This document shows, piece by piece, positions 13,456 to 43,839 of a DNA stretch of 64,000 nucleotides (its first letter is position 1; each line of letters starts with the position of its first letter). Source of the DNA: Camelus ferus (lineage: Eukaryota); contig NC_045696.1 in the NCBI RefSeq assembly GCF_009834535.1, forward strand, positions 50,718,001 to 50,782,000, given 5' to 3'. A model generated the notes under the pieces. It had not been told where the DNA came from. It saw only the letters and a list, made by a program, of their open reading frames with translations, and made no database searches. Position numbers and translations under genes: made by a program.

Positions 13456-14216
13456 GTGAGTACTGCTCCTCTGCCCCTTTCCGTGCCGCAGCCTCCTCCT
13501 CCTACCCATTCTCTCTGTCCCCCACCATTCAAACCCCCTGTCATTAGTCTTACCTTAAAAGGGGCCTTAAAAGCTGACATTTCCAATCAGAGAGCAGTGG
13601 CTGCCTAATATCCCCTGTGGCAGGGAACCTCTGTGCTCTCTGAGTAGAGGCAGAGTTGGAGTGAGTGTCTGGAAGGAAGGGAACTTGACATGGTTGAACT
13701 GCTCCTATGGGCTCTGGAGCTGGGCCATGCCGTGCCTTCCTACTTGGTCACCCTGTGGTCTTAGATGTGGTTGTGCCAACTGTTTGCCGCCCCCTCTGTC
13801 CCCCACACTCCGTCCTCACAGCAGCTGTAGACAGAGCATGTACAGGGCTACGCGTGGTCTGAACAGAACCTGCCCATTCACCCTTGGCCTCCTGCCTCTG
13901 AAGGACAAGCATATTCCAAATGCCTGGAGTATAAACAGTAGAACACAATGAAAAGGAAACTGTGACAAAGAGGTAAAGAGGAAGAGATCAGGTGACAGTT
14001 TGGTCCGAGGAGGATGCCAGGGGAAGACTTCCTACTACTCTTGTGTATAATTGCCACTTGGATATACTTCTGTGTCCAAGCTCAGCTCAGTACACACATT
14101 ACCTGATTTTCTGCCCATTGTACACGGAGGAAGTGAGACTTGACGGACTGAAGTCCCACAGGCCACAGAGCAGCGGGACACCTGGTCTCATGTGCGGAGT
14201 CTACAGCCAGGAAGCG

Positions 14217-14419
14217 CAGCTGACCCCTGAACGACGTGGGGATTAGGGTCGCCGGCCCTCCCGGCAGTCAGGAATCCGCACACAACTCACACAGGGTCTT
14301 CGGATCCTCAGGTCCAGCCAGCTGTGGGCCCGGTAGTGCTGCAGCATTCACTGTGAAAGAAAAATTCGCATCCAAGTGGACCCGTGCAGTTCAAACCTAT
14401 GTCGTTTAAGGGTCAACAG
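14217..14419. mobile_element. Tigger2a-like TcMar MITE
   Basis: TIR-like ends cagctgacccctgaacgac and gtcgtttaagggtcaacag; internal aagtggacccgtgcagttcaaacc. Confidence 0.75.
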
Positions 14420-18564: not shown

Positions 18565-18888
18565 TGTTTTAGTCAGGATTCTCCAGAGAAGCAGAACCAA
18601 TTATTATATATATGTTGTGTGTGTGAAATGTACACATACATATACTTATATATAATTATATACATACATGTAATTTTATGGAGAACATACATATACAGTT
18701 TTGTGTGTGTATACACACACACACACACACACAGATATACATGTAGATGGTGAGAGGTAAGGAAAGGGGAATAGAGAAAGGGAAAAAGGGGGCAGAGAGA
18801 GAGATTTCTAGTAAAGAATTGGCTCGCCTGATTGTGGAGGCTGGTAAGTCCAGAATCCACAGGGAAAGCCAGCAAGCTGGAGATGCAC
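18565..18888 (-). mobile_element. MLT2-like ERVL LTR fragment with an embedded (TA)/(CA) microsatellite
   Basis: tgttttagtcaggattctccagagaagcagaaccaat...aagaattggctcgcctgattgtggaggctggtaagtcc. Confidence 0.75.
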
Positions 18889-21707: not shown

Positions 21708-21866
21708 TTTTTTAACATTTTTTTTTGATTTATAATCATTTTACAATGTTGTGTCAAATTCCAGTGTAGAGCACAATTTTTCAGTTATGCATGAACATAT
21801 ATATATTCATTGTCACATTTTTTTCTCTGTGAGCTACCGTAAGATCTTGTGTCTATTTCCCTATGC
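21708..21866 (-). mobile_element. Young L1 3'-end fragment
   Basis: Reverse complement closely matches about 7115-7270; poly-T end. Confidence 0.85.
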
Positions 21867-22412
21867 CTGACTTCCTTCTTGAATGGAATTGAACTTTAAG
21901 TTGCAGCCTAAGGTAAAACTCAGGGAGAAGAGGATCAAATGAGGAAACTCCTTGAAAGTAATTATTAGGTTTATTGATGACACTGGGAGCATTTTGCTGA
22001 GGCCTGTAAAGTCTAAAAACTGGGGGATGAGCCTGCAGTTAAGATGTGACCATGTTGTGTTATGAGAATGCACAAATGTACATGAAATACTGTCATTTAA
22101 TTCATAGATCGGCTGAAGGAAGGACCAAGGCTAGAAGGTGGTGAGAGAGAAATTCAAAAGGGGGTTCAAGAAAAAGCTTGTCAATTTGTAGTTTCACATA
22201 TGATCCTGGTGATGGCAGGCATACCCACACGCCTCTAAAAGTGTTTATTTTCTTCGTCTTTTCCCCCACGGCCAAGAAGGTAGGAGCCTGATGTATCCTA
22301 GGCGTGAAGAGGAATCTCAGAGCACATTGCATGGTTTGTGTCTGAACAGATCCCTGTAATCTGTGTATCCAGTGGTCCTACGGAAGAGATGTGTCAGAAG
22401 ATACACATTCCA

Positions 22413-22491
22413 GGGGGGAGGGGGAGCTCAGTGGTAGAGCATGTGCTTAGTATGCACAAGGTCCTGGCCAGGACCTCTGTTAAAAAAAAAA
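22413..22491 (+). mobile_element. vic-1-like SINE lacking the B box
   Basis: agctcagtggtagagcatgtgcttag, poly-A, 15-bp TSD agaagatacacattc at 22396-22410 and 22492-22506. Confidence 0.88.
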
Positions 22492-24129
22492 AGAAGATAC
22501 ACATTCTGTTAAGAAATTGAGTGCTTAGAAGGAAAGGAACTGGGCAGGGTTTGGTATGGAGTCTGAGATGTTAGGGCTTTCTCAGAAAGCACAAAGTTCT
22601 GTGACTAATAAAGCAGGTCTGTAAACTGCGAGATGATGGCCCCAAAGACCAGGGCTTCTGACCTGGTGAGAGCTGAGAAACAAGAGTGGGCCTCCTGGCA
22701 TTTGATTAGTGCAGGGAAGTTAGTAAAATCACTGGAAGAATGCACAAAGAGAGGATACAAAAGAGGGGTCTGAGGGAAGGTAAGAGGATTAAAGCTGCAA
22801 AAACATTCCTCTAATGGATTTCTCAAACACACCAGCCAACAGGCAAGGGCAGGTGTCCTGTCAAACCGTTTCCCCTGTGAAACCGGATACCACTCTGCAT
22901 CGAGGCCTGCTAACCCCATTTGTAACCGAAGGGCCTGCCCCTTATTCCCAGCGAGGCACCCTGAGCAGCCCAGGGGATTCGCCAGGAAACCGGCTTTGCA
23001 GACAAAGGGGCCTGGGAACAGGCTGGTTTCCTTCATATGCAGCCAACTAGATCTCTGCATCTGCCTCTCATCTGGTGGCCGAAGGGGCTGTTATTGATCA
23101 CGGAGTCTCTTCCCCTCCCTGGCCTCCTTCCTGCCCAAAAATACTAGGAAAGGGGGTGCTCTGATTTTCAGATCATTCATCACTTCATTACTCTGCCTTT
23201 GATCCCTTAGTGAAACTCAACTTTTGCTCCAGCAGCCAAATTGGGAGTATTTGTCTAGTGAAGCAACTGCTAAAGCTTGAGCTCGGGGTTGGGGGTTGGG
23301 GGGACAGGGCCAAGGACCAAACTGCTGCTTATTTGTTTTGAAGCCAGGAGCCTTTCCTGCTAGTCGGCCCCTGTGGGGAGCTGGAAGCTCAGCTGGGGTG
23401 TCCTGGGTCCTGCCCTCATGGGCTGTTGTGCACATGTTGGCATCAGAACAGAGGGGCCGTCTGGCTGCATGGCTGACCGGTGCCCAGCTTTGTGCCTCCC
23501 CCAGTGCATAGCCCGCTGTCTCCAACCAGGCAGTTAATTGTCAGTGCAGAGGGGCCAGGAGGAGCTGCAGGGGTGCGCAGTGTTCTCTAGCATTGGGTCA
23601 GTGAGGTGGGTACACGGAGGAGCACGTGCTCTGTTCCTGGGTAAGCCTTCAGTTACCACGGGGCAGGAGCCTAGGGGCGGCGATGGCATTCTGATGCCAG
23701 ACTTCCTTTCAGTTGCTCACATCTTTCCGGCAAAATGATCTGTTAGGTTTAAGTATATTCTGGCTGGAGGCAGATTTTCTTGGAATGAGGTAAAGAAAAG
23801 GAGGAGGGTAAAACGAAAACTCAAAAACTCTTGGTGGAGTAGTTTTAGATTTATTAGACCGTGACAGAGAGTGCTTCTCAGCGACTGAGGAATTTTCCAG
23901 CTCACCATCGCTCACTGCTGGCTTCGTGGGGAGTCTCTGACTTGGCAGGTACTGCGTGCAGTGTGCTAAGGAGAATGAAGGCCTTTGCATGGTTGAAGCG
24001 CTTTGCTTTTGAAAAGCAGTTAGCGATACTCAGCTAGAACACACTGAGCCCAGGCAGGCCACCCTTGCCCAGAGTCCAGCTCTTCCTCCTCTCTGAGACA
24101 AAATGCACTCTCTCTCTTGGCTGAGGGGC

Positions 24130-24313
24130 TCTGCCAGGACTGGACTCCATATTTTGTGTGGCCCACTGCAAAATGAAAACATGAGGTCCCTTGGTCAGAT
24201 ATCATCTAGAATTTCAAGATGGTGACAGCAGAGTGTTAAACCAAGTGTTGGCCTCTTCCAAGCGCAGGGCCTGGTGCAGCTGCATCGGCTGCGTGCCCAG
24301 AAAGCTGGCCTTG
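24130..24313 (-). mobile_element. MER91A-like hAT element
   Basis: ggcccactgcaaaatgaaaa...agaatttcaagatggtgacagcagagtgttaaaccaag. Confidence 0.7.
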
Positions 24314-25832
24314 GGCACAGAATTCCAAACTATCCATTCAACAAGGTCTTAATGAGCACTTGGTATGTCCTGAATACTGTGCAGTGGGACTTGGGGTTGG
24401 GGCATGGAGTGCAAAATTAATAGGCTGTCCACCAGGAATTTGCAATTTCATTGGGGTAAGACATCACAAACACCAAATTAAATAACAAAATAATTGTTTA
24501 AAAGCCCAGAAGGTCCCATACCCACTCAAAGGAAGAAGTGCGTGCAGACCGCGCCTTGACCCACAGGAATCACTTGTTCAGCCTGGAAAGTGAAATGGGG
24601 CCACAGAAATGAACCAGGTATTCTGTCATTGTTTTTGCCACACCACTCCGTGAACAGTGTGGATTTCGTATTCCACATTTATTAGGCCTATTTTATCCCT
24701 TTCCTGACCTCCTGAGTAACCTCTCAAAAAATATTCTATTTTCAAAATAGCCACACTTAGATAAAGGTTGACTATCCTTGGATAAAAAGTTCATAGAAAA
24801 TCTGTTGTGCTAGGCCCTGGAGCTCATAATGTAGACCCAAACTCAAATATGAAATTTGAGTTCATAGACAGCATGGATGGGCATTTTGTACCTGACTTGA
24901 GGGGCCCAGCTCCAAGATAAATTATTCATCCAGTCATTCAACATTCACTGAGCATCCCCTAGGTTCAGAGGACACATGTATGAACAAGACTTGGTCACTG
25001 CCCCTAAAACATTCACAACTGAATATTGTTATCAAAGGACAACAAGCCTTTCAATAGAAACAAAAGGGCTTTCCTGCCCTGGCTGGCTTGACTGAGAACT
25101 TCAGAAACGTTCCATTAAGTGGGAAACCTCCTGACAGCACGGAGTGCCTGGATCACCAGGCTCTCCTGTGGTGACAAGAGTTTGTTCTTGGTGATTATGT
25201 CATGCCTCCTGGGAGAAACCTGATTCCCACCGGCTCCCGTTGCCTTCTCTGGGAACCAGCCACACAGGCAGGTGGAGTCTTGCGTGGAATTGCAGTTCGC
25301 TGTGATGGTATCATTCTCAGGAGCTGAGAATGTGGCGTGGTCAGCATTCAGACAGGGTGCCTCCAGGGCTTTCTAAGTACCTTTGTGGAGAGAGTGTCTG
25401 TGTAAATATTTTCATTTCTCTTATCTTATTCTCTATTAGTTTTATTTCCTCTCTTAAATTAAATTCAGCTCCAATCCTGAAAACCAAATTTGGAATGTGG
25501 TTTTGTTGCACAAATGGCCCATTTGGTTTAGCAGCATCAGTGATTTGGCTCAAACAAAGAGAATTTTGTTGTTTGGACTGTTGGATTGTTTGGGAAACAT
25601 CCTGCTTTTGTTCCAGATGGCTCTCCATCGTCTCCCATTTAAATCCCGTCTTCCTGCAAAGAGTCAAGTCAGGAGAGACCATAGCCTGTGTCAGGACCCT
25701 TGGCTCCCCCATATCCCACTGCCATTAAGCCACACTGGGGGCATCCCTCTTTGCCTTAGAAAACACTTTGGGCATACACAGATCCCCACCCCCAGCCCCG
25801 AGAAGGAATCAGCCATGACAAGGCACAGGGCA

Positions 25833-25989
25833 CAGTCGGCTCTCTGTATCTGCAGAGGGGAAGCCCGTGGACACGGAGGGCTGACTGAAATCACTGTACC
25901 CAATTTCATGTAAGGGGCTGGAGCATCCGTGGATTTTGTATCCACCGGGGTGCCTGGAAACAATCCCCAAGGATACAGGGGGAGGGCTG
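25833..25989. mobile_element. Tigger-family MITE (MER2/MER8-like)
   Basis: TIR-like ends cagtcggctctctgtatc and gatacagggggagggctg; internal gagcatccgtggattttgtatcc. Confidence 0.65.
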
Positions 25990-26595
25990 CACAGTTCCTG
26001 GGTGACAGGAATCAGCCTTCTCGTTGTAACTGTGGTTGGCAATTGAGTGGAATCTCTGGCCTTTCACTTTTCCCTGTGGATGTCTGAGAAGAACTAGGGA
26101 AGGCTGTTCTTGACTGAACTGGGGAAAAGACATGAGCATTCTCTTTCCTTGTTCCTTTCAGTCTCCATGAGCTGAGCCATGCCAGGACATTTGTGCCATG
26201 ACAATAACCCATTTTCTGCCAGGTTCGGTAGGGCCAGTGGGCCTGGCCTACTTACACACAGCACCCCCACCCATGTCAGGTCACAGAAGAGAACTGGTCT
26301 GTGTCACAGGCACCACTTGATGGAATTCTCTGCACACCCCCACCCCCAGGCTTATGTGCACCAAGCTGAACTCCCATGCCATAATGTGGGCTCACGGTCC
26401 CTTCTGTAAACTCCTCGTGACAACAGAAGGCTGGAAGGAGGACTCTGAGCACCCCTAGAGGGCCCTTGGAGTGTGAGGTTCTTGCAGCTGCTGATGGTGA
26501 CTAAAGACACCAGGGCACAAGCCCACCCCGAAATGTTGCATCACCTGCCTCTCTCTTCCGTCGAGACCCAGCTGGCCCCTGCCCTCTCTCTGCAG

Positions 26596-26742
26596 ATCTC
26601 CAGGACTTTAAGTTAGACGTGCAGCACGTGATTGAAGTCGACGAGGGGAACACGGCGGTCATTGCCTGCCACCTTCCTGAGAGCCACCCGAAAGCCCAGG
26701 TCCGATACAGCGTCAAACAGGAGTGGCTGGAGGCCTCCAGAG
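26596..26742 (+). CDS. BOC: BOC coding exon 3, N-half of Ig2 (LQDFKLDVQHVIEVDEGNTAVIACHLPESHPKAQVRYSVKQEWLEASR)
   Basis: tgcag acceptor, gtgag donor, 147 nt, translated by hand. Confidence 0.95.
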
Positions 26743-28496
26743 GTGAGTGAACAAGCAGGAGCCACCTCCTCACTGCCTCCTAAACCCTCGTCGACATGCC
26801 AGCAGCCCTCTCCTTGGGCTGTCAGCTGTCTTCTACTTTGACATTTAGCCCTGTGGGATCCTAAAGGGACTGGCTTCCGTTACGGAGGTCCCCTGCCTGT
26901 CACAAGCAATCTGTTCATCCTCTGAGGGCCTGGCAGATGCTGAGCTGCTGCCCTTGGACCAGGGCACTCAGCACAGGGTTCCCGATTGTGCCGGTGCAAG
27001 CTCCCTGCCGCCGGGCCCGCACAGGAGGGGTCCCTGATGACCCGAGACCTTCGTGGAGCTGTGGGGTTCCCTGGTGGGAGGTAGGGCTCTTCCCCACACA
27101 GAAAAGCAGTCTTTCTAGGGGAACTCGAGACTTTCCCTCTCCCCATTTTCCTGGTAATTTTGCAGCCATCTCGACCATCACAGTTTCCTGCCCAGGCCCC
27201 CGTGGTCACAACAGCTGGTCCAGGGGAGACCAAGCTTTGGTCCACAGAGTGCCAGCGGGGAGAGGAGATACCTCTCAAGACCAAGTCAGCTTCTTCTCAC
27301 AATGACCTGCACTCAAGGCCAAGTAGACCCCTGTGGCTTGACCCCACACCTCAAAGTGTATACCTTTTAAAATGTTCTAGAGATTTTTAAATGTTTCTGC
27401 TAACTTTCTGGTTATGAAAGGAATATATGTTTACTATAGAAAATACAAAAAAAACATTTTGTAAGAGGGTAAAACCTCTAATCCTGCCACTCAGAAATAA
27501 CTGGAGACTGAGAAGAGTATGAATGTCTGCTGTCCCTGGCAGAAGCCTGGCATTAGCCCCTAGGGGAGGCTTGTCCATTTTTCCATTCCATCCAGCATTT
27601 GCCTAAGCAGCTCACACCTGGAGGCTGGGTTGCAGAGACATCCAGCCTGCCAAGCACAGGCCACCAGAAAGCTTGACGACCAGTGCTTTGCCTCTCAGGA
27701 AGCTGAACACCATCCCTGTTGTTGGGGTGTCCAGAAGCTGTGAATCTGTCTCCTGGGGAAAGAAGCTGAAATCAACCCTGGGACTCCACCCCCATGGCAC
27801 CTCTGATCCAGAGTAGACAAAGCCTAGCAGACCAGTGATGCAGAGAGAAGGGCTTCAGTGCTGTGTTTATGGAGAGGGTAGGGGTTGGGGGCTAGAATAC
27901 TCCTCCCTGGCTGCAGAAATTCAACAGTGAGGTGGCTCAGAGCTGTGACCAGACTGATGGGAAATTCTCAAGTCAGTTCCCTCCTTCCTGGTGGCTCGCA
28001 GGAAGGATCACCTCATCACCATGCATGCAGCACTGGCCCCTCAGTCCTTACAAATGGTTCTGAGGCAGGACATGTTATGCCTTCGACAAATGAGGAAGCA
28101 GAGTCTGAGAGGTTAACTGACTTGCCCAAGATCACACGGTTAATACAGGGTAGAACCAGAGCTTGGGTCCAGGTCTGGCAGACCCCCAGTCCTGCTTCCC
28201 TTCTATGCTACCTGGGCTCCCTTGAAAGTATAAAACAGACCCATGCAGAGCTTGGAGTGGCGAGGGTCAGCCACCCAGTTTATTACCTGGTTGGTTAGTT
28301 CCATTCCCTGCATTTTCGTCCCAGTTGGTGCAAAGTTTCGTGGGGAGAACAGCACTTTCAACTTGGGCTTGTTGGGACCCATGTGCACAGCTCCCGGCTC
28401 CTCCCCTACCTGCCCCCAACTTTGCGGGGGGCTGTTGAGTGCAGTATTCTGGGCCCAAACTCATCCCATGTTCCCCTGGCCCTGTCCTTTCCTCAG

Positions 28497-28640
28497 ATAA
28501 CTACCTGATCATGCCATCGGGGAACCTGCAGATTGTGAACGCCAGCCAGGAGGACGAGGGGATGTACAAGTGTGCCGCCTACAACCCAGTGACGCAGGAA
28601 GTGAAAACCTCGGGCTCCAGCGACAGGCTGCGCGTGCGCC
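28497..28640 (+). CDS. BOC: BOC coding exon 4, C-half of Ig2 ([30 protein letters not shown]...)
   Basis: cctcag acceptor, gtaag donor, 144 nt, inside ORF 28439..29026. Confidence 0.96.
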
Positions 28641-29258
28641 GTAAGGGTCGGGTCTCGCCGATAGAGGGGGGCCTGGGGGTACAGCGGTCCAAGCTCCTGA
28701 CCCGTGTTCTCCAAGGTGGGGGCCGGGGGGCTGGGGCCAGTGGGATGTCCAGGACTCAGGATTCAGCCAGAGTAGGGGTCCTCTGCCCTCTGCCGGCCTC
28801 TCACAGCACGTGGCCCTCAGACTTGGTTCAGGGGGCGGCAGAGCTTGCGGGTCACTTCAGAGCCCTGTGGGGGGACACCCGCTCACTCCAGCCTGTTGAG
28901 AGCTTTCCTTCTCTGTGCCACTTTCAGAGGATGGGCACGGGTTGGGATGCGTGTACTGGGGCAGGACAGGCTGGCCATAGCATACGCATAGAAAAGACGC
29001 TGGTGCATGCATTTGTGCCTGTGTGAGGCCACCAGATCTGCTTTGCGTGAGGCCAGGCTGTGTCTACTCAGTCCGCATGGTGGAAATGCCCAGCACCTCC
29101 CTCTGATGAAGGTCCCCAGAGGCCCACACTGCTCCCCCATTCATATGAAAACAGCAGCTCCCTTGGCTGAGCACGTCCTCCGGGACAGGTACTTTTCTAG
29201 GCTCCCGCGTATTCAGTGGAGTGACGTCTTATGTGGAATTAGGCTTTAGAGTTGGCAC

Positions 29259-29408
29259 CAGAAGCAGATCTACCCTGAATCTAATGAAGCAAAACTTCAT
29301 TGAGTCCTCACTCACCTAATTTTGTATCTGTAATTTTTTATATTCTTTTTCTTCAAGAGGGTCTCCTGAGCTAAATTTCAGGTCTTACATACGCTGGATC
29401 TGCCTGTG
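29259..29408 (+). mobile_element. MER53-like hAT MITE
   Basis: TIR-like ends cagaagcagatcta and tggatctgcctgtg; 8-bp TSD gttggcac / gttggcgc. Confidence 0.75.
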
Positions 29409-30144
29409 GTTGGCGCATAAAGCAGATGGTCAGCCTGCTCCTTAGTCAGCGGGCTCCTCCTGGGTTCCTGAGGAAGGGAACCTGCCTTCCAGTCAGTTCT
29501 GTGTAGTTTCTGCCCCAGCGTTGAAAAAAGATCACTGCTTCCTCAGCTGAGCACCTGCTGAAATACTTGATTTGCTTTGGACACAAGAAATGAGTGCCTC
29601 TTTAAACAGTAGGTTACCTCACCACCCCCCGACTTAGCACAGCAGGATGCCAACTGCCAGATGAGCGCAGGGGCTCCCGTGAGACACACTTGGGAACTGA
29701 GGTCCAGGGATGGGGTTTGTGGGACGCAGCAGATCCTTCTCCCCTCTTGTCCTGGGCCTCAGAGTGGACTTACTGAGTACAAGTGAGAAAAATCACCTGC
29801 ACCATTCGAATTGTTTCTCTGCCCACCACCTCATCTTTCTTTGTCAAAACACATAGTTAACCATGCACATGTCGTGTCGATGATGCTGCTTCACCCCTGT
29901 CTCGTTCCTTCCCCGTGACAGCTCTCTGCAGGACGACCTTGTTACCCATAAGAAAACCAAGGCCCAAGGGAATTAGTAACTTGCCCACTTGACATAGGTC
30001 GTAAGCCCCTGGAGGCCTGTTTGAGTCCAAACGCAGGCTCTCTGGGCCGCCTCCTGGGGCTGGGCCGCCTGAAGCAGGCTGGAGGGGGTCCCTTGCACCC
30101 CGGCCTGGTCCCACACGCTGTGCTGCTTCTCCTTGCCCCTCCAG

Positions 30145-30438
30145 GCTCCACTGCTGAGGCTGCCCGCATCATCTACCCCCCCGAGGCCCAGACCATCGTT
30201 GTCACCAAAGGCCAGAGTCTCATCCTGGAGTGTGTGGCCAGTGGGATCCCACCCCCGAGGGTCACCTGGGCCAAGGATGGGTCCAGTGTCGCCAGCTACA
30301 ACAAGACACGCTTCCTGCTGAGCAACCTCCTCATCGACACCACCAGCGAGGAGGACTCGGGGACCTATCGCTGCATGGCAGACAACGGGGTCGGGGAGCC
30401 TGGGGCTGCGGTCATCCTCTACAACGTCCAAGTGTTTG
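30145..30438 (+). CDS. BOC: BOC coding exon 5, Ig3 (STAEAARIIYPPEAQ...YNVQVF)
   Basis: ccag acceptor, gtgag donor, 294 nt. Confidence 0.96.
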
Positions 30439-30777
30439 GTGAGTGTCTCCTGCAGACCTTCTTCTCTTCTGCCTTCTCTTATCTGCATGGCCTTTCTAGA
30501 GGCATTAAGCTGAAGCTCAGACAGGGTCACGCGCCGAGTGAGTGATGGAGGTGTTCTGAGAGGGTGGGAGGCCTTGGATCCCAGGGACTAGGGAGTACCT
30601 GCCTGGCAGCCCTTCCCTGTGAGGACTCTGATGGAGGAGACATGGGACCTTTCCTCTCCTCTACCAACAACCACAGAGAAGGAGAGAGAGTCTCTTGCCA
30701 GCAGTCCCCTCCCCAGCCTGTCTGGGCCTGGACAGAAGGACTCAGCCTTTCTCACCGTTGCTCTGATTTCCTGTCAG

Positions 30778-31050
30778 AACCCCCTGAGGTCACCATGGAG
30801 CTGTCCCAGCTGGTCATCCCGTGGGGCCAGAGCGCCAAGCTCACCTGTGAGGTGCGCGGGAACCCCCCTCCGACCGTGCTGTGGCTGAGGAACGCTGTGC
30901 CCCTCACCTCCAGCCAGCGCCTCCGACTGTCCCGTCGGGCCCTGCGGGTGGTCAGCATGGGGCCTGAGGACGAAGGCGTCTACCAGTGCATGGCTGAGAA
31001 TGAGGTTGGGAGTGCCCACGCCGTGGTCCAGCTGAGGACCACCAGGCCAG
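30778..31050 (+). CDS. BOC: BOC coding exon 6, Ig4 (PPEVTMELSQLVIPWGQSAKLTC...VQLRTTRP)
   Basis: gtcag acceptor, gtgag donor, 273 nt. Confidence 0.96.
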
Positions 31051-32059
31051 GTGAGTGCAGCCCAAGGGTCTGAGATTCTGAGTGAACATTTACAGAACCC
31101 TTTTTTTCAAATGAAATCCAACTTATCTAGTGTATAAAGTGAATAAAAGTGACTCTTAGTTGTAAGTTCAAATCTACATTAACTAGTAAGTCAGAAGTGT
31201 TAACTTTCAGTAATGAAAATGACCCATTTCACTGTTGTAATTTTTTTAAACTTTTTAATTAGCTTGCAGAATCTGTAGGGTTCTAGGGTTCCATGGAACC
31301 CAGTTTGATAACCACTGGTCTAGCACCAGGAAAAGCAAGTCTGTCTTTCTCAGCTTGATTGATTTCAGTTGACGATTCAGTCAGGCAATTAAGCAGTTGC
31401 TGTTGGCTCAGCACAGGGCTAGGCAGTGTTGGGGGTGCAGAGAAACATAACCAAGACCCTACCCTCAAGGCCCTTCTTAGGCAGGATGTGGAAGAAGACA
31501 ACAGGAGTAATAAAATGCTGAGTCAGCTACCAGGTGCCCACCTCCTGTGGTGCAGGAGCTCAGGTAGAAGCAGCTAGTGTTGGCAGAGTCTGTGGACGCT
31601 TCCTGAAGGAAGTGTTGCCCCTCCTGCCTCTCAGAGTCTCAAGATGCACTTTCATAGCTCAGGTCTCCAGGTCCCCACAGTTCCACAGGAAGCGGCCCAC
31701 ACTGTGCCAGGGTGTTGATCCCACAGTGAAGGGACATGTCCCCATCTCTGCATGGACGTGAGAAAGAGGGACGGGGTTCCTGCACCTCGGGAGCAAGTTG
31801 AGGTAGTTCACTCAAGACATACCAGGTGTGGACGCAGGAAGCCTGGGGTAGGGGTGGGGCGTCAGGCTGCCTTTCCCTCCTGGCTGGGCAGGGGCACAGC
31901 CCTCTCCTCCCACAGAGCCTGGCTGTGTGTCAGGCAGGCTGGTGGTCACCTCAGGCCCTGCGCTGAGAGCTCATCCCTCTGACATCTCAGTTTTCTCCGG
32001 TGGGGCAACAGCTCAGCAGGTGCTCTTCCTCACCTTCTCCTTCCTGCTCGGTCCTCCAG

Positions 32060-32367
32060 GCACCACCCTGAGGCCATGGCGGGATGCTCAGCCAGACACC
32101 ACCACACCTCGCACGCCGCCCTCCAGACCTGGAAGCCCTGACCAGATGCTGAAGGGCCACCCGGGGCCCCTGAGGCCCCCGGTGTTGGTGCAGCCGGCTT
32201 CCACACAGTGCCCCGGAGAGCAGGGGCAGGTGGCTCCAGCCGAGGCGCCCGTCATCCTCAGCTCGCCCCGCACCTCCAAGACTGACTCATATGAGCTGGT
32301 GTGGCGGCCCCGGCATGAGGGCGGCAGCCGGGCGCCCATCCTCTACTATGTGGTGAAACACCGCAAG
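32060..32367 (+). CDS. BOC: BOC coding exon 7, Pro-rich linker and start of FNIII-1 (...APVILSSPRTSKTDSYELVWRP...YYVVKHRK)
   Basis: ctccag acceptor, gtacgg donor, 308 nt, phase 1-0. Confidence 0.94.
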
Positions 32368-34719
32368 GTACGGAGCGTGCTGAGCTCTCGGTGAGGCCAG
32401 GGGCTCTCTGCCTGCTGGCCGTCTCCCCTACAGCTCCTGAAGCCTGGACAGTTGTCCCCACTGCTGACCATGACCTTCTCTGCCCTCCAGTGTACTTTTT
32501 TCCACCTTGCAGGAAGCTTTGGGTCTGAGCCCTGTGCACCAGCTTCCCATCCCGAGGAGCGTACAGGCTCCCTGTTAACCATCCCCCATCCTCCCCTCTT
32601 CCCTCTGCCATTTGCTGGGGCTGTTGTTTTGTTTCGTTTTTTAACCTAAGTAAGCTGTGCTGGGTACATACCTGCAGGAACTCTGGTGTGGCAAGCTAGC
32701 TCAGGAGCCAGGAAAACTAATATTTGTGAACAAGTGTTTTCGCTGAGGGCCACAAAATACCCACTCAGTTCTCAGGATTCCTCATGGCTCAGGTTTGACA
32801 AGCAGGCATTTGAGCTAAAAGCACATCATGTTGTTCAGACCTCAGCTATTTCTCGTTGACAGAAGGAAGTCTGTCCAGGTGGTTGTTTTGGGAGCTGTCA
32901 GGGAGGGAGTCTGGCTCTGACAGGATGCAGGGACAGAGCTGGGCCAGCCCATCTCTTGGACACTGCGCCCTGTGAGCAGAACGGGGCCCCCAGGCTGCCA
33001 CCCTCATTCAAGGCCAGGCTCTCACCTGCTGTTACCCATTAAATTCCCTTTAAGAAAATATCCTTGAAAACATTTCTGTTCATCCCAGGTGCAGGCTGTT
33101 TTCTTTCTAAGGCATAAAACAGTAGAAAATTATTAAGTGGATTTTTAAAAATCGTATTTGATAAGTAATAATGTGTCATAAGTGCTAGGCTTTATTATGC
33201 ATTTATTATTTGTGGTTTATGAAACTGCTATGTGCACTTGGTAGAAAACATGGAAAATATATGAATGTGGAACTAAAAGTATTTATCAGCTTTCCTCTCC
33301 CCTCCAAAAACACCACCACCAGCCCTGCCGGGTGGAAAGCGCTGGCTGTGCAGAAGCCATGCTCTGGCCCTGGGCCCGCCGGCCCCCACGGTCTCTTCCT
33401 GCCCGTTACGTGCTCTGCTCGGAGACCTCGGGTCGGGACAAGTCCTCGGGGGCACCTTTGGCAAAGTTGCCTCCTAGGTAGGGGTCGGGAGGGGCCGTTT
33501 CTCATTAACTCTCAGCCTGCTAGCCTGTTCACAGGCAGCCAGCAAAGTGGGTGGGTGAGTTTGTAACAGAAAGCAGCATTGTTCAGCCCAGGTTATGGGG
33601 CAGGGCTGGTCCTAACCCTCATTTCCCCGTGTAACTGGACCCCACCGTCACAGAGCTGTGGACAAAGATCAGGGCAGGCCAAATGCTCATGGTCCCCAGG
33701 AGACAAGAACCAGCGTGAGAGCAAGGAGAATATTTTTCGGGCCAGTAGGTGGACGTGAAACCAGCTCACTGAGAGGCCGGCTGGCAAAGGCCACGTGAGG
33801 CAATCCGGAAACACCGGGCTGAGGCCGCGTTCTCCCCCTCGGTGTGCGTGACAGTGACTAATTACCATTCCATTTCTTATTTTCATTTCTGAGCCCAGGG
33901 GAAGGGAGACCGGTGCTGGGAGGCCGAGACAGCAGGGGCCCAAGGGAAGTGAGAGGACAGCGCCCCCCGCTGGGCCTGGCTTCTGTTACGCTGTGGCCTG
34001 TGGGGCACTGGGAGCTGTTGGGTGGACTCGGCCTTGAAAGCAGTTTCTTTCTTGAAGAACTAAAGATCATCACACAAGAAAGGATTCTGAAAGAAAAATC
34101 AGGCTTGGGCTTGTATTTTTTCATCCCCCCTCTCCTGCTGGAGCCTGGGAGTCATTCAGCTCATTTTCACTTTTTCACATGCATGAAGCCAGTTTTCATT
34201 TCCTGGTGTATCTACAGATCCTGGGCTACTGTGTTTGGGTTTCCAGCACCGCTGGGGATTCTCAGTTTGTAAAAACTTTTTCCCTTTGGAACAAATCCTG
34301 GAAGCCTGACATTAATGAGTCCAGACCATCCCTGTCCCTTGAATAGTGGGTTTTGTTCTACTTTGGAATATTCGGCGTGGAGATAAGAGCTTTTCCTACA
34401 GCTGTTTAATTCCTTCAGCAAACCGCAGCTTCAGGCCCCAGCAGGCTCTCTGAGATGTGCACAGCTGGCAGTGGAGTCTCTGTCCTGAAAGGCGGGGTGG
34501 GTGAGGTGAAGCAGCCTCTCAGCAGCGCCTGTCCAGGAGCCTGGAGCTCCTTTGTTTTTTCTTTAAAAAGAGCTAAGAATTTGAAGCCTTAAAAAGATTA
34601 ATCTGTGATAATTACGAATTAATCCATGGTTTTTAAGTTCTAAGTGAGGCCTGAGGGCAGGAACAGAAAAAGGAGAGTTGAAATCCTCACTGCGTAGAGG
34701 ATGGGGGGTTAGGGGAGGG

Positions 34720-35200
34720 GCCAGGCGCTTGTTGGGAACCTACTGTGTGCAGGTTCAATGCTCAACACATCACGTAAATCATCAGATTTAATCTTCAGGA
34801 TGACCTGAGAGATTTTCTTTGCTTCATTTTAGAAATAGAGAGCTTAAGGGATCAGAAGGATTAGGAACCTTGCTCAGGGTCACACAGCTGGTAACCTGTG
34901 TGTGGTAGGAGAGACAGCCCAGATTTGAACCCAGGATTTTTTGGCTCCCAGGCTCTCTTTCCAGGGTAGGTTATGATTACGAACTCGCTCTCTGGAGTCA
35001 AGTCAGGGTTTCTGTGCTCACTAGCAGTGTGGTCTTAGGCAAATCACTCATCTCTGTAAGCCTCAGTCTCCCCACTTACGAGGCAGGAACAATATTAACT
35101 CCCATCTCTTGGGCTATTGCCATGGTAGCACTTTATGGTGCATATAAAGTGCTTAGTGTGTGCCTGGCACATAATCAGCACTCAGCAGATGGGGCTGCTT
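34720..35200. mobile_element. Two oppositely oriented MIR relics (minus about 34720-34960, plus about 34965-35200)
   Basis: ccttgctcagggtcacacagctggtaa...gatttgaacccagg followed by gtgtggtcttaggcaaatcact...tgcctggcacataatcagcactca. Confidence 0.7.
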
Positions 35201-35614
35201 CTCCTGGTGCTGCTACTTTCATCATTTTCACCATCATCTCATTAGAATGTTTGGTTTAAATAGATCAAGGAGAAAGAAAATTAAATAGGGAGGTTTTTAG
35301 AAAAACAGAGGGTCTTTGGAGAAACTCCCAGCAGTATCACTTGGGCCCTTTGACTCTCCCCACCGAGTTGTCTTTGATGAGATCATTAGATGAGGGATGA
35401 GGGAGCCTGAATGTACTGTCCCAGCGAGGATGGGTGTCCCAGGGCCAGCAGGACCAGTCTCCTTCTGTTGGGCCACCCCTGCCCCAACCCTGGCCCATTC
35501 TCCCTCCCTTTCTCCTGCCCTCTGAGGCTCAATTCTGCTTTTCTTGCAAACCACAACCCACTTCTAGCTCCAGGCCAAGATGCCAGTCCTTATACCAGCT
35601 GCCTTCACCAGCAG

Positions 35615-35775
35615 GTCACAAACTCCTCTGACGAATGGACCATCTCTGGCATCCCAGCCAGCCAGCACCAGCCTGACCCTCACCAGACTCGACCCTGGGA
35701 GCTTGTATGAGGTGGAGATGGCAGCTTACAACTGTGCAGGTGAAGGCCAGACGGCCATGGTCACCTTCCGAACTG
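35615..35775 (+). CDS. BOC: BOC coding exon 8, rest of FNIII-1 (VTNSSDEWTISGIPASQH / LTLTRLDPGSLYEVEMAAYNCAGEGQTAMVTFRT); contains a +1 frameshift
   Basis: CAGCAG acceptor at 35609-35614, gtaag donor at 35776. Length is 161 nt where 160 is needed for phase 0-1. The peptide is split over ORFs 35411..35710 and 35580..36002. Confidence 0.93.
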
Positions 35776-36135
35776 GTAAGGGTCCCAGGTTGCCCCCAGC
35801 GTGGGGTTTCCGTGAACCCGAGCAGTCCTGTCAGGCCAGGTGGGAAGCCCTGCTCGCCTTACCCCAGCTATTCACCTTGAACTTTACCTTCCTTTCAGCT
35901 ACTGCCTCCCTGTGGTCCCACCTCCCATCAGCAGAATCACCAGCTGGCCCCCTGACATCCCTTTGCCTCTCTTGCACTCAGGGGCCAGGTGCAATTCCAT
36001 GACCACACTTCCAGTGTCCTCTATTATTGACATAGTCTTGTCAGATCTCTTGGCAGAGCCTCAGGCAGAAGGGACTCTGTGGAAAGGGAGACCTGATGCA
36101 CACTCCTTGTGCTGACCCCAACCTATTTCACCCAG

Positions 36136-36246
36136 GACGGCGGCCCAAACCCGAAATCATAGCCAGCAAGGAGCAGCAGATCCAGAGAGATGACCCTGGA
36201 GCCGGCCCCCAGAGCAGCAGCCAGCTGGACCATGGCCGCCTGTCCC
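36136..36246 (+). CDS. BOC: BOC coding exon 9 (RRPKPEIIASKEQQIQRDDPG...HGRLS)
   Basis: cccag acceptor, gtaag donor, 111 nt. Confidence 0.94.
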
Positions 36247-36745
36247 GTAAGCCCCCAGCAGACCCAAGGGCAGGGTGATGAGAGGTCAGAACTGGGTACA
36301 GGTCCACTGCCTCAGAAGGCTCATTGCTGCAGGTTGAATGGGATCTTGGTTCGTGGGTGCAGGAGTCCTTGTGTTGTCTGGCCTCTCCCCAGTTAGCCAC
36401 AATGAGATGTGGATAGGAGCTTTTCAGAAAAGACACTGGAGTTTGACACTAGGGTTGCTGACCATCTGGGTCCAGAAAGCAGTAGAGGGGGGAAGAGCTG
36501 GCCCCTGGCCTCCACACTGATATTGCAGAAGCATAGCTTTTAGGCGTCTTAACTCCAAGGGCTCCTACCAGGGGAGAGTGACCCAGGGAGCCCCAGGGAG
36601 ACCTGACGCAGCCACCGGGGGGCGGAGGGCACTGGGGGAAGCTGGCCCTGATCAGGAACAGGCCAGGTCCAGTCTCAGGACACCCACCTTCTCACCACAT
36701 CCCTTCCTCCTGCTTCCTTCCTCTCTTGTGTATGGTCTCCTCCAG

Positions 36746-36952
36746 CCCCAGAAGCTCCAGACAGGCCCACGATCTCCATGGCCTCTGAGACTTCAGTGTA
36801 TGTGACCTGGATTCCCCGTGGGAATGGTGGCTTCCCAATCCAGTCCTTCCGCGTGGAGTACAAGAAGCTAAAGAAAGTGGGGGACTGGATTCTGGCCACC
36901 AGCGCCATCCCGCCCTCCCGGCTCTCGGTGGAGATCACCGGCCTGGAGAAAG
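36746..36952 (+). CDS. BOC: BOC coding exon 10, FNIII-2 ([32 protein letters not shown]...ITGLEK)
   Basis: tccag acceptor, gtagg donor, 207 nt. Confidence 0.96.
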
Positions 36953-37285
36953 GTAGGGTCCTGGCCACTGTCCTACCTGGTCCCCAGCTGCCCCGGCCAC
37001 CTGGAGGAGAATGGGAGCCTGGAGGTCCTTCTCTCCGCTTGTCCTCCACTCACCATCAGGCTCCCTGGCCGCTCTTGGTGGAGTTACCTCGGTCCCACAA
37101 GCCCTTCCTTCTCTCTCCCTAGCTCCATACTTGGTCTAGAGGCACCTCCTGTGTGGCTCCTCTCTGATGAGGGTGGGATTCTTGAGTCCTCTGGGGCTTG
37201 CTTTTGGGCAAGGGCTGCCCAGAAGATCCCTCCACGTCCTGAGCCTGGATGGGCCGTGGGGCAGTCAGGCCGTGTCTCTCCCCAG

Positions 37286-37467
37286 GCACGTCCTACAAGT
37301 TCCGAGTCCGCGCTCTGAACATGCTGGGGGAGAGCGAGCCCAGCGCCCCCTCCCGGCCCTACGTGGTGTCGGGCTACAGCAGCCGCGTGTACGAGCGGCC
37401 CGTGGCCGGCCCTTACATCACCTTCACTGACGCCGTCAACGAGACCACCATCATGCTCAAGTGGATG
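37286..37467 (+). CDS. BOC: BOC coding exon 11 (TSYKFRVRALNMLGESEPS...TTIMLKWM)
   Basis: cccag acceptor, gtgag donor, 182 nt. Confidence 0.96.
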
Positions 37468-37906
37468 GTGAGTGGCCTGGCGCAGACCGCCGTGGGAGGA
37501 CGGGGCCGGCAGCCGCAGCGCGGGCAGGAAGGAATCACCTTTCTTCCCTGACTCATTCCAAGCTGCTTCCCCTTAAGTGTTCCTCCACCTGCGTGCCTGG
37601 GAACCTGGGGCTCGGGCCAGAGAGACTCACCCTCACGATACCCAGGTTGAGGGGACTTCAGTCTTTGAAGAAATGGCAGTTTGTTTCTTGTCTCCAAAAG
37701 TTGGGGACTGCTACGCTAAATAAAATAAGGCGTGATCTCCTCAGCATTGACCAGGGGGCCTTGGGGATTGTCATCAGAAATGTTTGTCTGGGTCCCTAGT
37801 GAATTTTAAACTCTAGGCTGGGGTATGATTCCAGCCACCAGCGGATCTGCTCACATGATGATTTCCCTGCTCCACTGGCAACTTGTTTCTTCTTTCTTCC
37901 CTATAG

Positions 37907-38012
37907 TACATTCCAGCAAGTAACAACAACACCCCAATCCATGGCTTTTATATCTATTACCGGCCCACAGACAGCGACAATGACAGTGACTACAAGAAGG
38001 ACATGGTGGAAG
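37907..38012 (+). CDS. BOC: BOC coding exon 12, FNIII-3 ([35 protein letters not shown]), part of the Hedgehog-binding domain
   Basis: ctatag acceptor, gtgag donor, 106 nt, translated by hand. Confidence 0.95.
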
Positions 38013-38346
38013 GTGAGAAACACTTGTGAGTTTCCTCTGTTGGCCCTGGTGTGTCTAGAAGTTGGTGAAAGTACAAAACGGGCTGGCGGGTCCCAGATCA
38101 TTGGCTCCTTCATGACATACTCGGGGTCGTCCAGTTCATAAGCCCCCGTGCTTCCTTCCCATGGTGATGGGACAACAGGAAGTGGGTGGGCACTTGGACT
38201 ATGTCCTTCAGTGCTCCTTCCCCACATGGCCCCCTGTGCTAGTCCATGGCACCAGCTCAGACACACAGCCCTGAGTGTGGCTGCAGATGGGGGCCAGGCA
38301 AACCCCGTGCATGATCCCCACACGTGCCTCTCTTGCTGTTTCCCAG

Positions 38347-38469
38347 GGGACAGATACTGGCACTCCATCAGCCACCTGCAGCCGGAGACCTCCTACGACA
38401 TTAAGATGCAGTGCTTCAACGAAGGCGGGGAGAGCGAGTTCAGCAACGTGATGATCTGTGAAACCAAAG
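38347..38469 (+). CDS. BOC: BOC coding exon 13, end of FNIII-3 ([40 protein letters not shown])
   Basis: cccag acceptor, gtgat donor, 123 nt. Confidence 0.96.
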
Positions 38470-40574
38470 GTGATTCTCTTTGGGTTCTCTGCTCTCCTCT
38501 TGCTGTTCCCAGCAGACAAGGGCAGAGTCACTGCTCTGTGCGCCGAGCTGGGTATATCTCCTCCCCAGGATGACTCCATATTTTCCATGTATCCCCAAAC
38601 TTCGTCATTTTAAACCCTTATGTTGATTTGCCCAAGTATGAATGGGTTGCCATCATGACGGCTTGGGAATTAACTCATACATGAAATCAGGGACTAGAAC
38701 CCGTTCTTAAGTTGGGAACTTTCTATAAACACTTTATTCCTACACTGGGCACTTACCCTTTGGTACTTCCATTGGTTGGCTTACTTAATTTAACTACAAC
38801 CCCATGAGAAAGGAAAGAAATTCAGCATCAGGAAATGATACACAGCAGTTAGCGGTGGAGCATGCTCAGGGCCCGGTGGTCTAACTACAAGCCCAGACCC
38901 TTTCCCCGCAGTAAAACACACTGAACATACTCATATGTGTGTTTATATATACTCATATAATGTTAATTTTTGCACAGTGATCAAGTAGATCGATATCATT
39001 TCTATTTTGCAAATACTGAAAGTACATTGCAAAGAATGTGATCAGGAGGAGAAGATCCCAAAGGAATAGGAATGGAGACAAGAAAACAATCCACGTTCCC
39101 ATCACTGGCAACATTCTCCCTCCTGCATGCACTTCCCACACTCCTCTATCACGTGCAGTGAAGCCGGGGGCAGGTACGTGCACAGCCAGAAATCCTGTAC
39201 CAGGTGACACAGAGTCCCCAGGGCAAAGAACAGAGACTTCACAAAGGCTCTGCCCTGGTCTTCCAGAAGGACTAAATCTTCAGCCTGGATGCAGGGGGAG
39301 GCCTAGAGGACAGGACAAACCTGCAGGTCGCTCACCTGGTTGGAGAGTATGGCCCTGGGAGGACAAGAGGGGGTGTTTAGGGAAGAGGCCAGGGATGTGA
39401 GGGCATCGGGTCATTGAAGACTGTGGGCTGAGAGGTGGAGAAAGGGTCACTGTTGGATTTGCTTGTCCGGAAGCTCACTGGACCATGCAGGAATGGGCTG
39501 AGGGGGGAGAATTAAAGCGAAGGTGTGGGTTTGAGTCTCTTCTGGGGAAGTGCAGAGAGGACCAGAACTGATAGCACTTTGAGGCCAAGAGAGTGAGAGG
39601 AGTTCAGAGTAAACCTTAAGTTTCCAGCTTGAAGCACCACAGAGGTGGTGTGGCCACTTATTGAAATGGGGAGGCCGGAGGAGAACCAGAGTCCATGAGA
39701 AAAGACAAGGTGAGACCTCAGGGAACAGTCCTGAGACTGAAATAGTGTGCCCCACAAGAGAAGGCAGGTCTCCTGTGGCCGGGGGCGGGGGCAGGAGGGC
39801 CTGGGTGGGGATATTTGGCAGTCATGGAGATGGAGGCTGAAATCACAGGAAGTGAATAGAGTGCAGACTGAGAAGGACCAGGAGGACTTCCCGGTGTCTG
39901 AGGTGAAGACAGAAAAGGGCAAGAAAGAGAAATGTAAGTGGCCATGGTCAGAGCGGTCGTGGGAAACCCAGAAGACCGTAGTAGCAAGTCAAGGAGTGAA
40001 CGGTGTCAGGTCACCCTGATACAGCAGGACCCAGATGAGTTTGCCATCCCATCCCCTTTGGTTGGCATTTCACAACCACCGTCCGTCCACGTGAGCCCCA
40101 CCCAGCACGCTGTCTCCCTGCTCGGCCACCCCAGCTCACACCTAGGACTCCACGCCTCTCAACACACCCAGGAATAGCAAACTCATGGGGAAATTCCATC
40201 TTTTGCTGGTTTCATGCCTTTTAAAATATCTTCTTCTAAAAGGTCGCCAGCTTTTCTTTTAGAAACCCTCTATACCACTTCCGCCCCGGAGACCCAGCGT
40301 GAGCCCTGGGTCTTGGCCCACAAGTCTCTCAGGTTGCCTTGTGAAATGTGAGATTCACATCTCTTCGGCAATGCCCAGTTTCACATGAGATGCCAATTTT
40401 ATGCTGAGGTTGGACAACACACTCACCTAACAAATGCCCTGTATTATATAAGTTTGACCCAATTTCACACCCGTGGAATCAAATCAAGGTCTTTTGTTTG
40501 TTTGTTTTTTACTATTTCTTATGAAAGAAATGTTAAAGAAATAGATGCTGAAGTGAGTTTTGTCCCAATTGCAG

Positions 40575-40796
40575 CTCGGAAGTTTTCTGGTCAGCCTGGG
40601 CGACTCCCACCCCCAACTCTGGCCCCACCTCAGCCACTGCCCCCTGAAACCATGGAGCGGCCAGTGGGCACTGGGGCCATGGTGGCCCGCTCCAGCGACC
40701 TGCCCTACCTGATTGTCGGGGTCGTCCTGGGCTCCCTCGTCCTCATCATCGTCGCCTTCATCCCCTTCTGCTTGTGGAGGGCCTGGTCTAAGCAAA
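40575..40796 (+). CDS. BOC: BOC coding exon 14, juxtamembrane region and TM helix (YLIVGVVLGSLVLIIVAFIPFCLW)
   Basis: tgcag acceptor, gtgag donor, 222 nt, hydrophobic TM segment. Confidence 0.96.
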
Positions 40797-41500
40797 GTGA
40801 GTGAGTGACCTCAGTACCAAGGGGAAGGAGCCTGGGGTGGGGGGCAGCCCCCAGGGAGGCCTCTGCTCAGGGTGGGATACAGGTGCCCTGCTTCTCATAC
40901 ACCAGAGCTCAGGTTCCTGGTGGGCCCCCTGAGGACTTGGGGAGAGTCAGAACAGTCCCATACGGGCCCTTCCCTTTAGCTCACGGACCTTGGCAGATGG
41001 AAAGGGTCAAGGGGGACTTGGTCTGTCCCCTCTGCGTCCCTGGAACTCGGTACCCACCTGCCTCTGGCTTCTTTTACTGTCTGAAGCTATGCTCTGACCA
41101 CTTGTTCATACTTTTAAATGACCCTGTCTCTTCCCACCTCTGGGGCTGCCTCGAACTTTCCCCTTATCCTGGGTTAATCTGATTTACCCACTAATTTCTG
41201 CTTCAGATGGCAACACATCTTATCAACTTGCCTCATTTAAATGTTGCGCCTACTGTTCACTTAACACTTAGTTCTCACAAACCCTGGTCCTGTATCTCCT
41301 CTCCCTACTGCAGAAAAAAGTCTAGATGTCAGGAAGCAGTGGGTGACAGGAGGAATTTCCTGAGACGACATCCTCATCCCTAGGGTAGTGTCCGCTCCCT
41401 GCCTACCTCACTTGACCTCACATCCTCAGGACTTTTCTGAGATTCAAGCTGCCCCAGGCCTCCTTGGCCTGAGCAGACCTCCATCCTTCTGTCCTTCCAG

Positions 41501-41736
41501 AACATACAACAGATCTGGGTTTTCCGCGAAGTGCCCTTCTGTCCCCCTCCTGCCAGTACACTATGGTACCACTGGGAGGGCTCCCCGGCCACCGAGCCAG
41601 TGGGCAGCCCTACCTCAGTGGCACCAGTGGGCGGGCCTTTGCCAGCGGCATCCGTGTGAACAGGGCCTGCCCTGCGGCTGCCGCGGGCTACGCGGGCCTG
41701 AAGTCTCAGCTGCACTGCCCAGGGGAGCTCCAGCAG
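41501..41736 (+). CDS. BOC: BOC coding exon 15, cytoplasmic (HTTDLGFPRSA...CPGELQQ)
   Basis: ttccag acceptor, gtaac donor, 236 nt. Confidence 0.93.
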
Positions 41737-41917
41737 GTAACGTGGCTGGGGTGGGTGGTGAGCAGGTCTGGGCCACCGTGGAGAGGGGCTGGGCTGCCTC
41801 TTGGGGCTTCCTCTCTTCCTGCCTCTAATTCAGGCAGCAGCATCCAGGCCTGCTGAGCAGTGAACAGGGAGGTCACCTGGACCCCCTGATGGGACCTTTT
41901 TGTTACTCTTTGAGCAG

Positions 41918-41994
41918 CAGGAGGACCCCGCCAGCGTGCTGCGGCAGACCGTTCTCGGCAGTGGACCTGACCCCCGCGGGCACCGGAGTCCCAG
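41918..41994 (+). CDS. BOC: BOC coding exon 16 (QEDPASVLRQTVLGSGPDPRGHRSP)
   Basis: GAGCAGCAG acceptor cluster makes the start uncertain by 3 nt; gtacc donor; phase 0-2 fits the neighbouring exons. Confidence 0.85.
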
Positions 41995-42433
41995 GTACCC
42001 GAGCCCAGCACCCACTGTCTTGCTAGCGGCCCCACCCCAGCCTCAGTCACCCAGAGGGGGCCACTTGTGCCTCACTCAGGGATCCCCACATCCGCAGGCT
42101 GCTCCCCCCGGACGCTTAGCCTGAGGGGTGGTTGTTGCATCTGAGTCACAGTGCCTTTTCTGCTCAAAAATCCTTCCCTCACTTGGTGGGCCAGACACCG
42201 CTGGGGTTGCTCACAGGCCCCCACACCTGACTCCACACCCTCATACATTCAGGACACACACGGAATCAAATGGAAACAGGCTAGAATTACCTGTGAGAGT
42301 GATGGTGTGAAGCCTCTTGACGTCCCTGCCCTGTCTGAGCTCTGCCGCCCTCAGACAGAGGAGCAGCCAGGGCTGGGGACACAGGCGCCCCCTTCCCCCT
42401 ACCTCACCCCTCCATCTGGCCTCACGCACACAG

Positions 42434-42627
42434 GGGTCCCGCATCCAGCCTGGACGAGGGCACCTTCTTGTACACACTGCCCGATGACTCAACGCACCAG
42501 CTGCTCCCGCCCCACCAGGACTGCCACCACCTCCAGGAGCAGCCTGCAGCCGTGGGCCAGCCAGGCGTCAGGAGTGTCCCCCAGAGTCCTGGGCTAGAAG
42601 CGACATGGGACCCTCTTTTTCACCCAG
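42434..42627 (+). CDS. BOC: BOC coding exon 17 (GPASSLDEGTFLYTLPDDSTHQLL...WDPLFHP)
   Basis: cacag acceptor, gtcag donor, 194 nt. Confidence 0.92.
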
Positions 42628-43651
42628 GTCAGCGCCAAGGGCAGGGTGGGAAAGTGAGCAGGCTGGGAAGATGATAGGCCTTCAAGGTGGTGCTTGTAAG
42701 GAGCCATTCACAGCTTTTATCTCAGAGATGGGGGTGGGAAGGGAGCTGGCCACCTCCTTCCCTGCTAAAGGCCCAGCAGATCTGCAGGGACATGTCAGGT
42801 GGGTCCTATTCCACCATGGCAAGCTGTGTCCCCAAAGGCTGAGAGAAAGGGCACTCCTCCACTTCAGAGTAAGAAGCCCCTTTGGTCTCGGCATTTCAAG
42901 GGCCATTCGTGAATTCCCATTGCCCTCTCATCACCCCAAGAGGCATTCTCTAATCACTCCCAAATATCTTGCTTTGTTGGGTCTTGTCTCGTCATGAAGG
43001 AATGAGGTCGCACCCATCAGTGAGAAGCCAAGTTCTCACATCATCTTCAGAGCTCTGTGCTTCTACAGAACTTTCTCTCCAAGGGGCCCAGTACACGCCA
43101 CCCCCAGCCCACTGTCTTGTGCCAACCTGTCAGAAGTCCGTGGATACTTGGCTGGGGCTCAGGCTGTGTCAGAATTAGCTGATGATCCTCCATGGCGTGG
43201 ATGCCAGTTCACATGCAAGTCCTAGACTCTGTCTCTGGGAGATAAAATACCAAGACAAGCACCTTGTAGAGCCAGACCCCAGTGTCCTTTACATCGGACT
43301 CTCTCCACCTGGCGGAATGAGCTAAGTGGGATGATTATGACCAGAAGGCAGGAGGGTAGACTAGTGGGTGGACTTCCCACCTGGACAGAGCAGGACTTCT
43401 TTATGCAGTTCCTGGGCTCAGCTGACTTCATCTGCTCCCAGGTACAGGGTAAGGTCACAGTCCCACCGCTGAGATGAGCAGGCAGCACGTAGGTGGCCCG
43501 CGCCAGGTCGAATGTCCTTGTAGTTGTAGGTCTCTGTCCTCCTTCAAGGCCAGCGTCACTAGCTCCCGTCACAGGTAGAGGCAGGCCCAGCGGTGCTGAG
43601 CGCTGGCTCCTGGTCAGGCTGGACTCTGACGTTTCCCACTTCTCCCCCCAG

Positions 43652-43839
43652 GGCCGCCGTGCTGCTTGGGCCTCGTCCCGGTTGAAGAGGTGGACAGTCC
43701 TGACTCCTGCCCAGCGGGCAGAGGAGACTGGTGTCCCCAGCACCCCGCGGGGGCCTACGGAGGGCAGGAACGTGGGAGGCGGCTCTCCCCTAGCCCACCG
43801 GTGCCCGTGGCTTTTGAAACACCACCTCCTACAATTTAG
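43652..43839 (+). CDS. BOC: BOC final coding exon (PPCCLGLVPVEEVDSPDSC...AFETPPPTI*)
   Basis: ccccag acceptor, TAG at 43837-43839, C-terminus resembles recalled BOC ...FETPPLTI. Confidence 0.94.

Follow-up and report, generated by a model that had tools for sequence, protein, structure and literature searches.

An apparent frameshift in BOC exon 8 of the wild Bactrian camel genome is probably a single-base insertion error of the assembly consensus

The Hedgehog co-receptors BOC (brother of CDO) and CDON belong to an Ig-FNIII family; in BOC, four Ig domains are followed by a BOC linker (PF16625), then by three fn3 domains and finally by a membrane helix. A frameshift and premature stop in a conserved single-copy gene are typical of unitary pseudogenes, the products of lineage-specific gene loss, which are recognized by several lesions, relaxed constraint and sharing throughout the lineage. 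On the other hand, a single +1 shift in an otherwise perfect gene, recurring in other genes, is the form taken by residual insertion errors of long-read assemblies, and NCBI marks models that have been corrected against the genome sequence with the label 'LOW QUALITY PROTEIN'. Uncorrected long-read indels are discussed in a study of dromedary assemblies, which are other assemblies than that of C. ferus (PMC7468183). Here we analysed a 64-kb window of the Camelus ferus assembly (C1:50718001-50782000), in which the BOC gene carries one extra base in exon 8. Judging by base rates and by comparison with related camels, this base would be a single-base insertion error of the assembly consensus, with a probability of about 0.85.

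The gene in the window is the camelid BOC, a Hedgehog co-receptor. In a tblastn search, dromedary BOC matched the + strand from 12270 to 43836, with 97-100% identity per exon, and the searches with camel BOC proteins, the exon map and the Pfam matches together define a coding region at 12270..43839 on the + strand, with 18 coding exons from ATG to TAG. A splice-aware reconstruction against isoform X1 of C. bactrianus BOC (P0128) placed GT-AG boundaries at all 17 introns. The exon lengths total 3352, which is 3351 + 1, or 3 x 1117 + 1, and when base 35670 is omitted the translation is identical to P0128 in 1116/1116 residues plus the stop. The gene therefore has the near-identity over its full length to named proteins of close relatives that is expected of a BOC orthologue, and the view of the initial annotation that the other exons and the splice sites are intact is borne out.

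The domain order is likewise that of a BOC orthologue, with four Ig domains, the BOC-specific I-set/FN3 linker, three FNIII domains and a single membrane helix. Pfam, run on the identical C. bactrianus protein, detected Ig_3 in four stretches, PF16625 at residues 410-473 and fn3 in three stretches. The membrane helix corresponds to the hydrophobic stretch LPYLIVGVVLGSLVLIIVAFIPFCLW, encoded at 40574-40795, while FNIII-2 (591-705) and FNIII-3 (711-818) match the solved BOC domains 1x4z and 3n1g/3n1m/3n1p. As compared to the known BOC and CDON co-receptors, the gene in the window differs by the extra base alone, and its protein is otherwise identical to that of C. bactrianus.

Coding exon 8, which encodes the middle and C-terminal parts of FNIII-1, lies at 35612..35775 on the + strand, between exon 7 (32060-32367, phase 0) and exon 9 (36136-36246). 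It occupies 164 nt in the window, where 163 nt are expected. The exon is single copy in the assembly, which was searched over 2,087,093,976 bases in 2043 contigs. Its acceptor is a CAGCAG tandem (35609..35614, + strand), which accounts for the presence or absence of Q515 in BOC isoforms (1116 and 1115 residues) throughout the three Camelus annotations, X1 and X2 of the camel models being distinguished by that one Q. Depending on the acceptor, the exon measures 164 nt from 35612 (+Q isoform) or 161 nt from 35615, after the second AG of CAGCAG. The 160-nt exon 8 and the 545-residue product given in the initial annotation are thus correct for the isoform without Q, but not for the +Q isoform, which has 164 nt in the window and stops at codon 547.

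The extra base, an A at 35670..35670 on the + strand, shifts the frame by +1 within FNIII-1. The stretch at 35640-35710 reads ...atc cca gcc agc cag cac cAg cct gac cct cac cag act cga ccc tgg gag ctt gta tga, and the frame from 35615 encodes VTNSSDEWTISGIPASQH and then QPDPHQTRPWELV, before ending at the premature TGA at 35708..35710 (+ strand; codon 547 of the +Q isoform, in the shifted frame). The conserved sequence resumes as LTLTRLDPGSLYEVEMAAYNCAGEGQTAMVTFRT in the next frame, which is open across the whole of exon 8 and beyond it, from 35568 to 36002. When the translation of this second frame was used as a query, 220 proteins were matched, and among the 120 listed, every descriptively named one is BOC, several of them from camels. 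The frameshift and stop described earlier for exon 8 are hence visible both in the sequence and in the translations of its two frames.

Omission of the A restores CAC CGC CTG, or H-R-L. Among the 120 listed BOC proteins, a pattern for this site matched 114 and missed 6; in all 114 pattern-matched orthologues, from amphibians to mammals, R or H directly precedes L-T/S-L, and neither Q nor a frame change occurs in any of them. Since its omission gives the H-R-L conserved in the orthologues, A35670 is the best choice of the extra base, as the initial annotation had proposed, and the full identity with P0128 agrees with this choice. The base lies in a quasi-repeat that can be read directly from the sequence, CCAG CCAG CCAG CA CCAG CCTG (35654..35675, + strand): the A turns CCAG CCAG CCAG CA CCG CCTG into a run with a fourth CCAG unit.

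The public annotation of C. ferus has met the same site. A 90% cluster of camel BOC proteins contains 12 members, one of which, P0123 (1115 aa), is named 'LOW QUALITY PROTEIN: brother of CDO [Camelus ferus]'. It differs from isoform X2 of C. bactrianus (P0122) at a single position, Q533 in place of R, where it reads ASQHQLTLT. The H-Q-L of P0123 is what the window DNA encodes if one C of 35672/35673, instead of A35670, is dropped. The flag and the H-Q-L at this exact site indicate that the public wild-camel genome has the same extra base and that the annotators modelled round it; they had thus already treated the site as a sequence fault, dropping one base and applying the label. As in other frameshifted NCBI models of this kind, the C. 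ferus BOC bears the label, and its single difference from the sister species is the residue encoded across the extra base. Compared with the public model, in which dropping a C gives H-Q-L, dropping A35670 gives the H-R-L of the orthologues, so that the better correction is the conserved arginine, not the glutamine. A literature search found no paper on 'LOW QUALITY PROTEIN' together with Camelus ferus. In the dromedary RefSeq annotation, protocadherin beta-6 is also a 'LOW QUALITY PROTEIN' (P0168), while its C. ferus copy is unflagged, showing that such flags are not peculiar to one camel assembly.

The comparison with related camelids that the initial annotation had called for gave a uniform result. 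QHRLTLT is present in all of the C. bactrianus and C. dromedarius BOC sequences inspected (about 7), which comprised RefSeq models P0128, P0132, P0122, P0131, P0029 and P0127, in two versions per species, and the GenBank dromedary sequences P0003 and P0028. Neither species therefore has the extra base in its models. A search of the exon 8 region (35580-35999) against proteins predicted from public read assemblies returned 26 matches, the best of them 76% identical and none from a camel. We also compared the word content of public sequencing runs with the region 32400-36100: of 24 runs, the 14 best DNA or unlabelled ones (7 studies) each contained 0.99 of 389 sampled words, and none reached 1.00. 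A shortfall of 2-5 words would be the cost of one private site; it is not placed on the sequence and is therefore not used as evidence.

The frequency of such faults in this assembly was estimated from protocadherin variable exons, which were chosen because each is a constrained, single open reading frame of about 800 codons and such sequence is unlikely to contain real breaks. The N-terminal domain PF08266 finds such an exon whether or not the rest of it is intact, and all 78 candidates were scored, giving 55 matches. Fifty-one of these lie in open frames of at least 788 aa, and the other four in frames of 320, 693, 422 and 399 aa. Each of the four broken exons (L002-L005) consists of two long, overlapping open frames, frame n and then n+1; against an intact paralogue nearby, its alignment falls into two successive parts between which no residue is missing, as in L004, where they cover residues 5-429 and then 430-798. 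The breaks, on contig C3 of the assembly (G000), lie at L002:1188, L003:2281, L004:1558 and L005:1483, and each is accounted for by one net inserted base within the overlap of the two frames (AAAAAA[T]CGG, GCGCAC[A]AGC, GGACCG[C]TGA and GGGC[A]ATG) in an exon that is otherwise intact.

L002, which encodes protocadherin beta-2, was compared with its orthologues, and L003-L005 with paralogues only. P0264 (C. bactrianus) and P0163 (dromedary) both continue without interruption across the L002 break; identity is 99% up to the break, and for P0264 it is 100% over the next 300 residues or so. The uninterrupted orthologues show that the insertion in L002 is private to the assembly, like that in BOC. 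In the same exon, a cadherin repeat is partially duplicated: L002:1534-1760 (G000:C3:98565033-98565259) adds about 216 in-frame bases (72 residues) that the adjacent paralogue and the dromedary protein lack and that the C. bactrianus model P0264 shares. A look-up of protocadherin beta-2 clusters for a C. ferus model returned three clusters of one member each, with no C. ferus entry. The four protocadherin breaks are probably further consensus errors, and the gene models there are probably flagged or missing.

A consensus error would be expected to have counterparts in further constrained genes of the assembly, and these were found here in 4 of the 55 exons. In constrained coding sequence, four events in about 132 kb correspond to about one per 33 kb, a rate that predicts about 0.10 events in the 3351-nt coding sequence of BOC; the lower 95% bound of 4/55 gives about 3%. 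Judging from human genomes, the chance that any one gene of an individual genome carries a real frameshift allele is a few per thousand at most. Setting the measured rate against this expectation, the odds of an artefact over a real allele are roughly 10:1 to 30:1. All five breaks, in BOC and the four protocadherin exons, are +1 shifts. In natural mutation, deletions are at least as common as insertions, and this one-sided bias therefore fits a technical cause better. A survey of GPCR domains (PF00001) was considered as a second base rate and set aside: among the best 147 of 1641 candidates, 135 were full-length and 12 partial, and since unbroken domains rank higher by score, the full-length matches are uninformative on the error rate.

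Taken together, these data favour a consensus error, on the strength of the public C. ferus flag, the sister species that lack the base, and the same +1 fault in 4 of 55 protocadherin exons. The state of the gene itself points the same way, as it is perfect apart from one base (18 exons, 17 GT-AG introns and identity over 1116 residues). The consensus of a long, gap-free C. ferus assembly would have gained one A at 35670, and the BOC gene of the animal itself would most likely be intact, encoding a normal Hedgehog co-receptor of 1115 or 1116 residues with four Ig domains, three FNIII domains and one membrane helix. The 64-kb window contains 0 N, as in a long-read assembly, and the C. ferus assembly was presumably built from long reads. 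From the shared signature, we infer that the BOC base belongs to the recurrent +1 fault class of this assembly.

Several observations run against a consensus error. The BOC insertion is not a homopolymer extension: the A stands between C and G (C-A-G), beside no other A, whereas in three of the four protocadherin exons the inserted base lengthens a base or run already present. It is therefore not a typical homopolymer error. In addition, exon 8 is unique sequence and should have been an easy target for short-read polishing. The base rate may also overstate the error in unique genes, given that all four broken exons fall among the 48 matches in one cluster (C3:98.32-98.86 Mb), and none among the seven matches elsewhere; as only about 0.5 breaks would be expected in those seven, an effect of the cluster is not separated from a uniform rate.

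These points bear on the strongest rival, namely that the extra A is a real and recent BOC loss-of-function allele, heterozygous or homozygous in the sequenced wild camel. The initial annotation had left the choice between a consensus error and a recent null allele, and these stand as the alternatives to be weighed; the evidence leans to the error, and we regard the allele as unlikely. In its favour, the A sits in unique sequence in the assembly, and the insertion is no homopolymer extension but a fourth CCAG unit, as replication slippage could make. Moreover, the wild camel is critically endangered, and its small population lets harmful alleles drift. Boc mutant mice are reported to show defects in commissural-axon guidance, the cerebellum and retinal projections, without holoprosencephaly, suggesting that a null could be tolerated, above all in a carrier (PMC4133726). 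However, the prior for a real allele is low when set against how often this assembly shows the same fault, as measured here; the models of C. bactrianus and C. dromedarius lack the base, the 3351 nt of coding sequence show no further sign of decay, and the annotators flagged the site as a sequence problem.

The mRNA of such an allele, if it exists, would be a target of nonsense-mediated decay (NMD); by the usual rule, the premature stop then precedes the last exon-exon junction by more than about 50-55 nt. The stop ends at nt 1641 of the coding sequence, far upstream of the last junction at nt 3164, with ten further junctions downstream, and the prediction thus holds. Any product escaping decay would be a secreted fragment of 545 or 546 residues, in which Ig1-4, the linker and half of FNIII-1 are followed by 13 foreign residues, and FNIII-2, FNIII-3 and the membrane helix are missing. 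The decay and the secreted Ig1-4 fragment foreseen by the initial annotation are arithmetically right, and are relevant only if the allele is real.

A still less probable reading, which we consider very unlikely, is that BOC is a fixed pseudogene, lost in the wild Bactrian camel lineage. The frameshift itself is the one feature that speaks for it, whereas the gene carries a single lesion, has 0 other residue differences from C. bactrianus in 1116, and keeps all of its splice sites, while the affected stretch is retained in 114/114 pattern-matched orthologues from amphibians to mammals. Such a loss would, moreover, have to be very young. As compared to unitary pseudogenes, with their several lesions, relaxed constraint and lineage-wide sharing, BOC has one lesion, no further substitutions, intact splice sites and closest relatives without the lesion; an old pseudogene is accordingly rejected, in agreement with the initial annotation.

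Functional readthrough, whether by cryptic acceptors at 35574, 35580 or 35658, skipping of exons 7 and 8, ribosomal frameshifting or RNA editing, is hardly credible and was rejected: the proposed arithmetic is sound, as an AG precedes each of the three sites, all in the second frame open from 35568, and joint skipping of exons 7 and 8 keeps the phase (1 to 1), but each route deletes or replaces conserved FNIII-1 residues (VTNSSDEWTISGIPASQH) that the orthologues keep, and none is needed if the base is an error.

A true null allele segregating in the wild camel would provide, in a large mammal, a Hedgehog co-receptor knocked out by nature, or carriers of such a defect; it would also exemplify genetic load in a very small population and be of interest to wild-camel conservation genetics. 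If the extra A is instead a consensus error, as we favour, the finding is a note on quality: the assembly would have roughly one extra base per few tens of kilobases of constrained coding sequence. Apparent frameshifts and 'gene losses' taken from this assembly, including those in screens for camel adaptation, would then need confirmation at the level of the reads.
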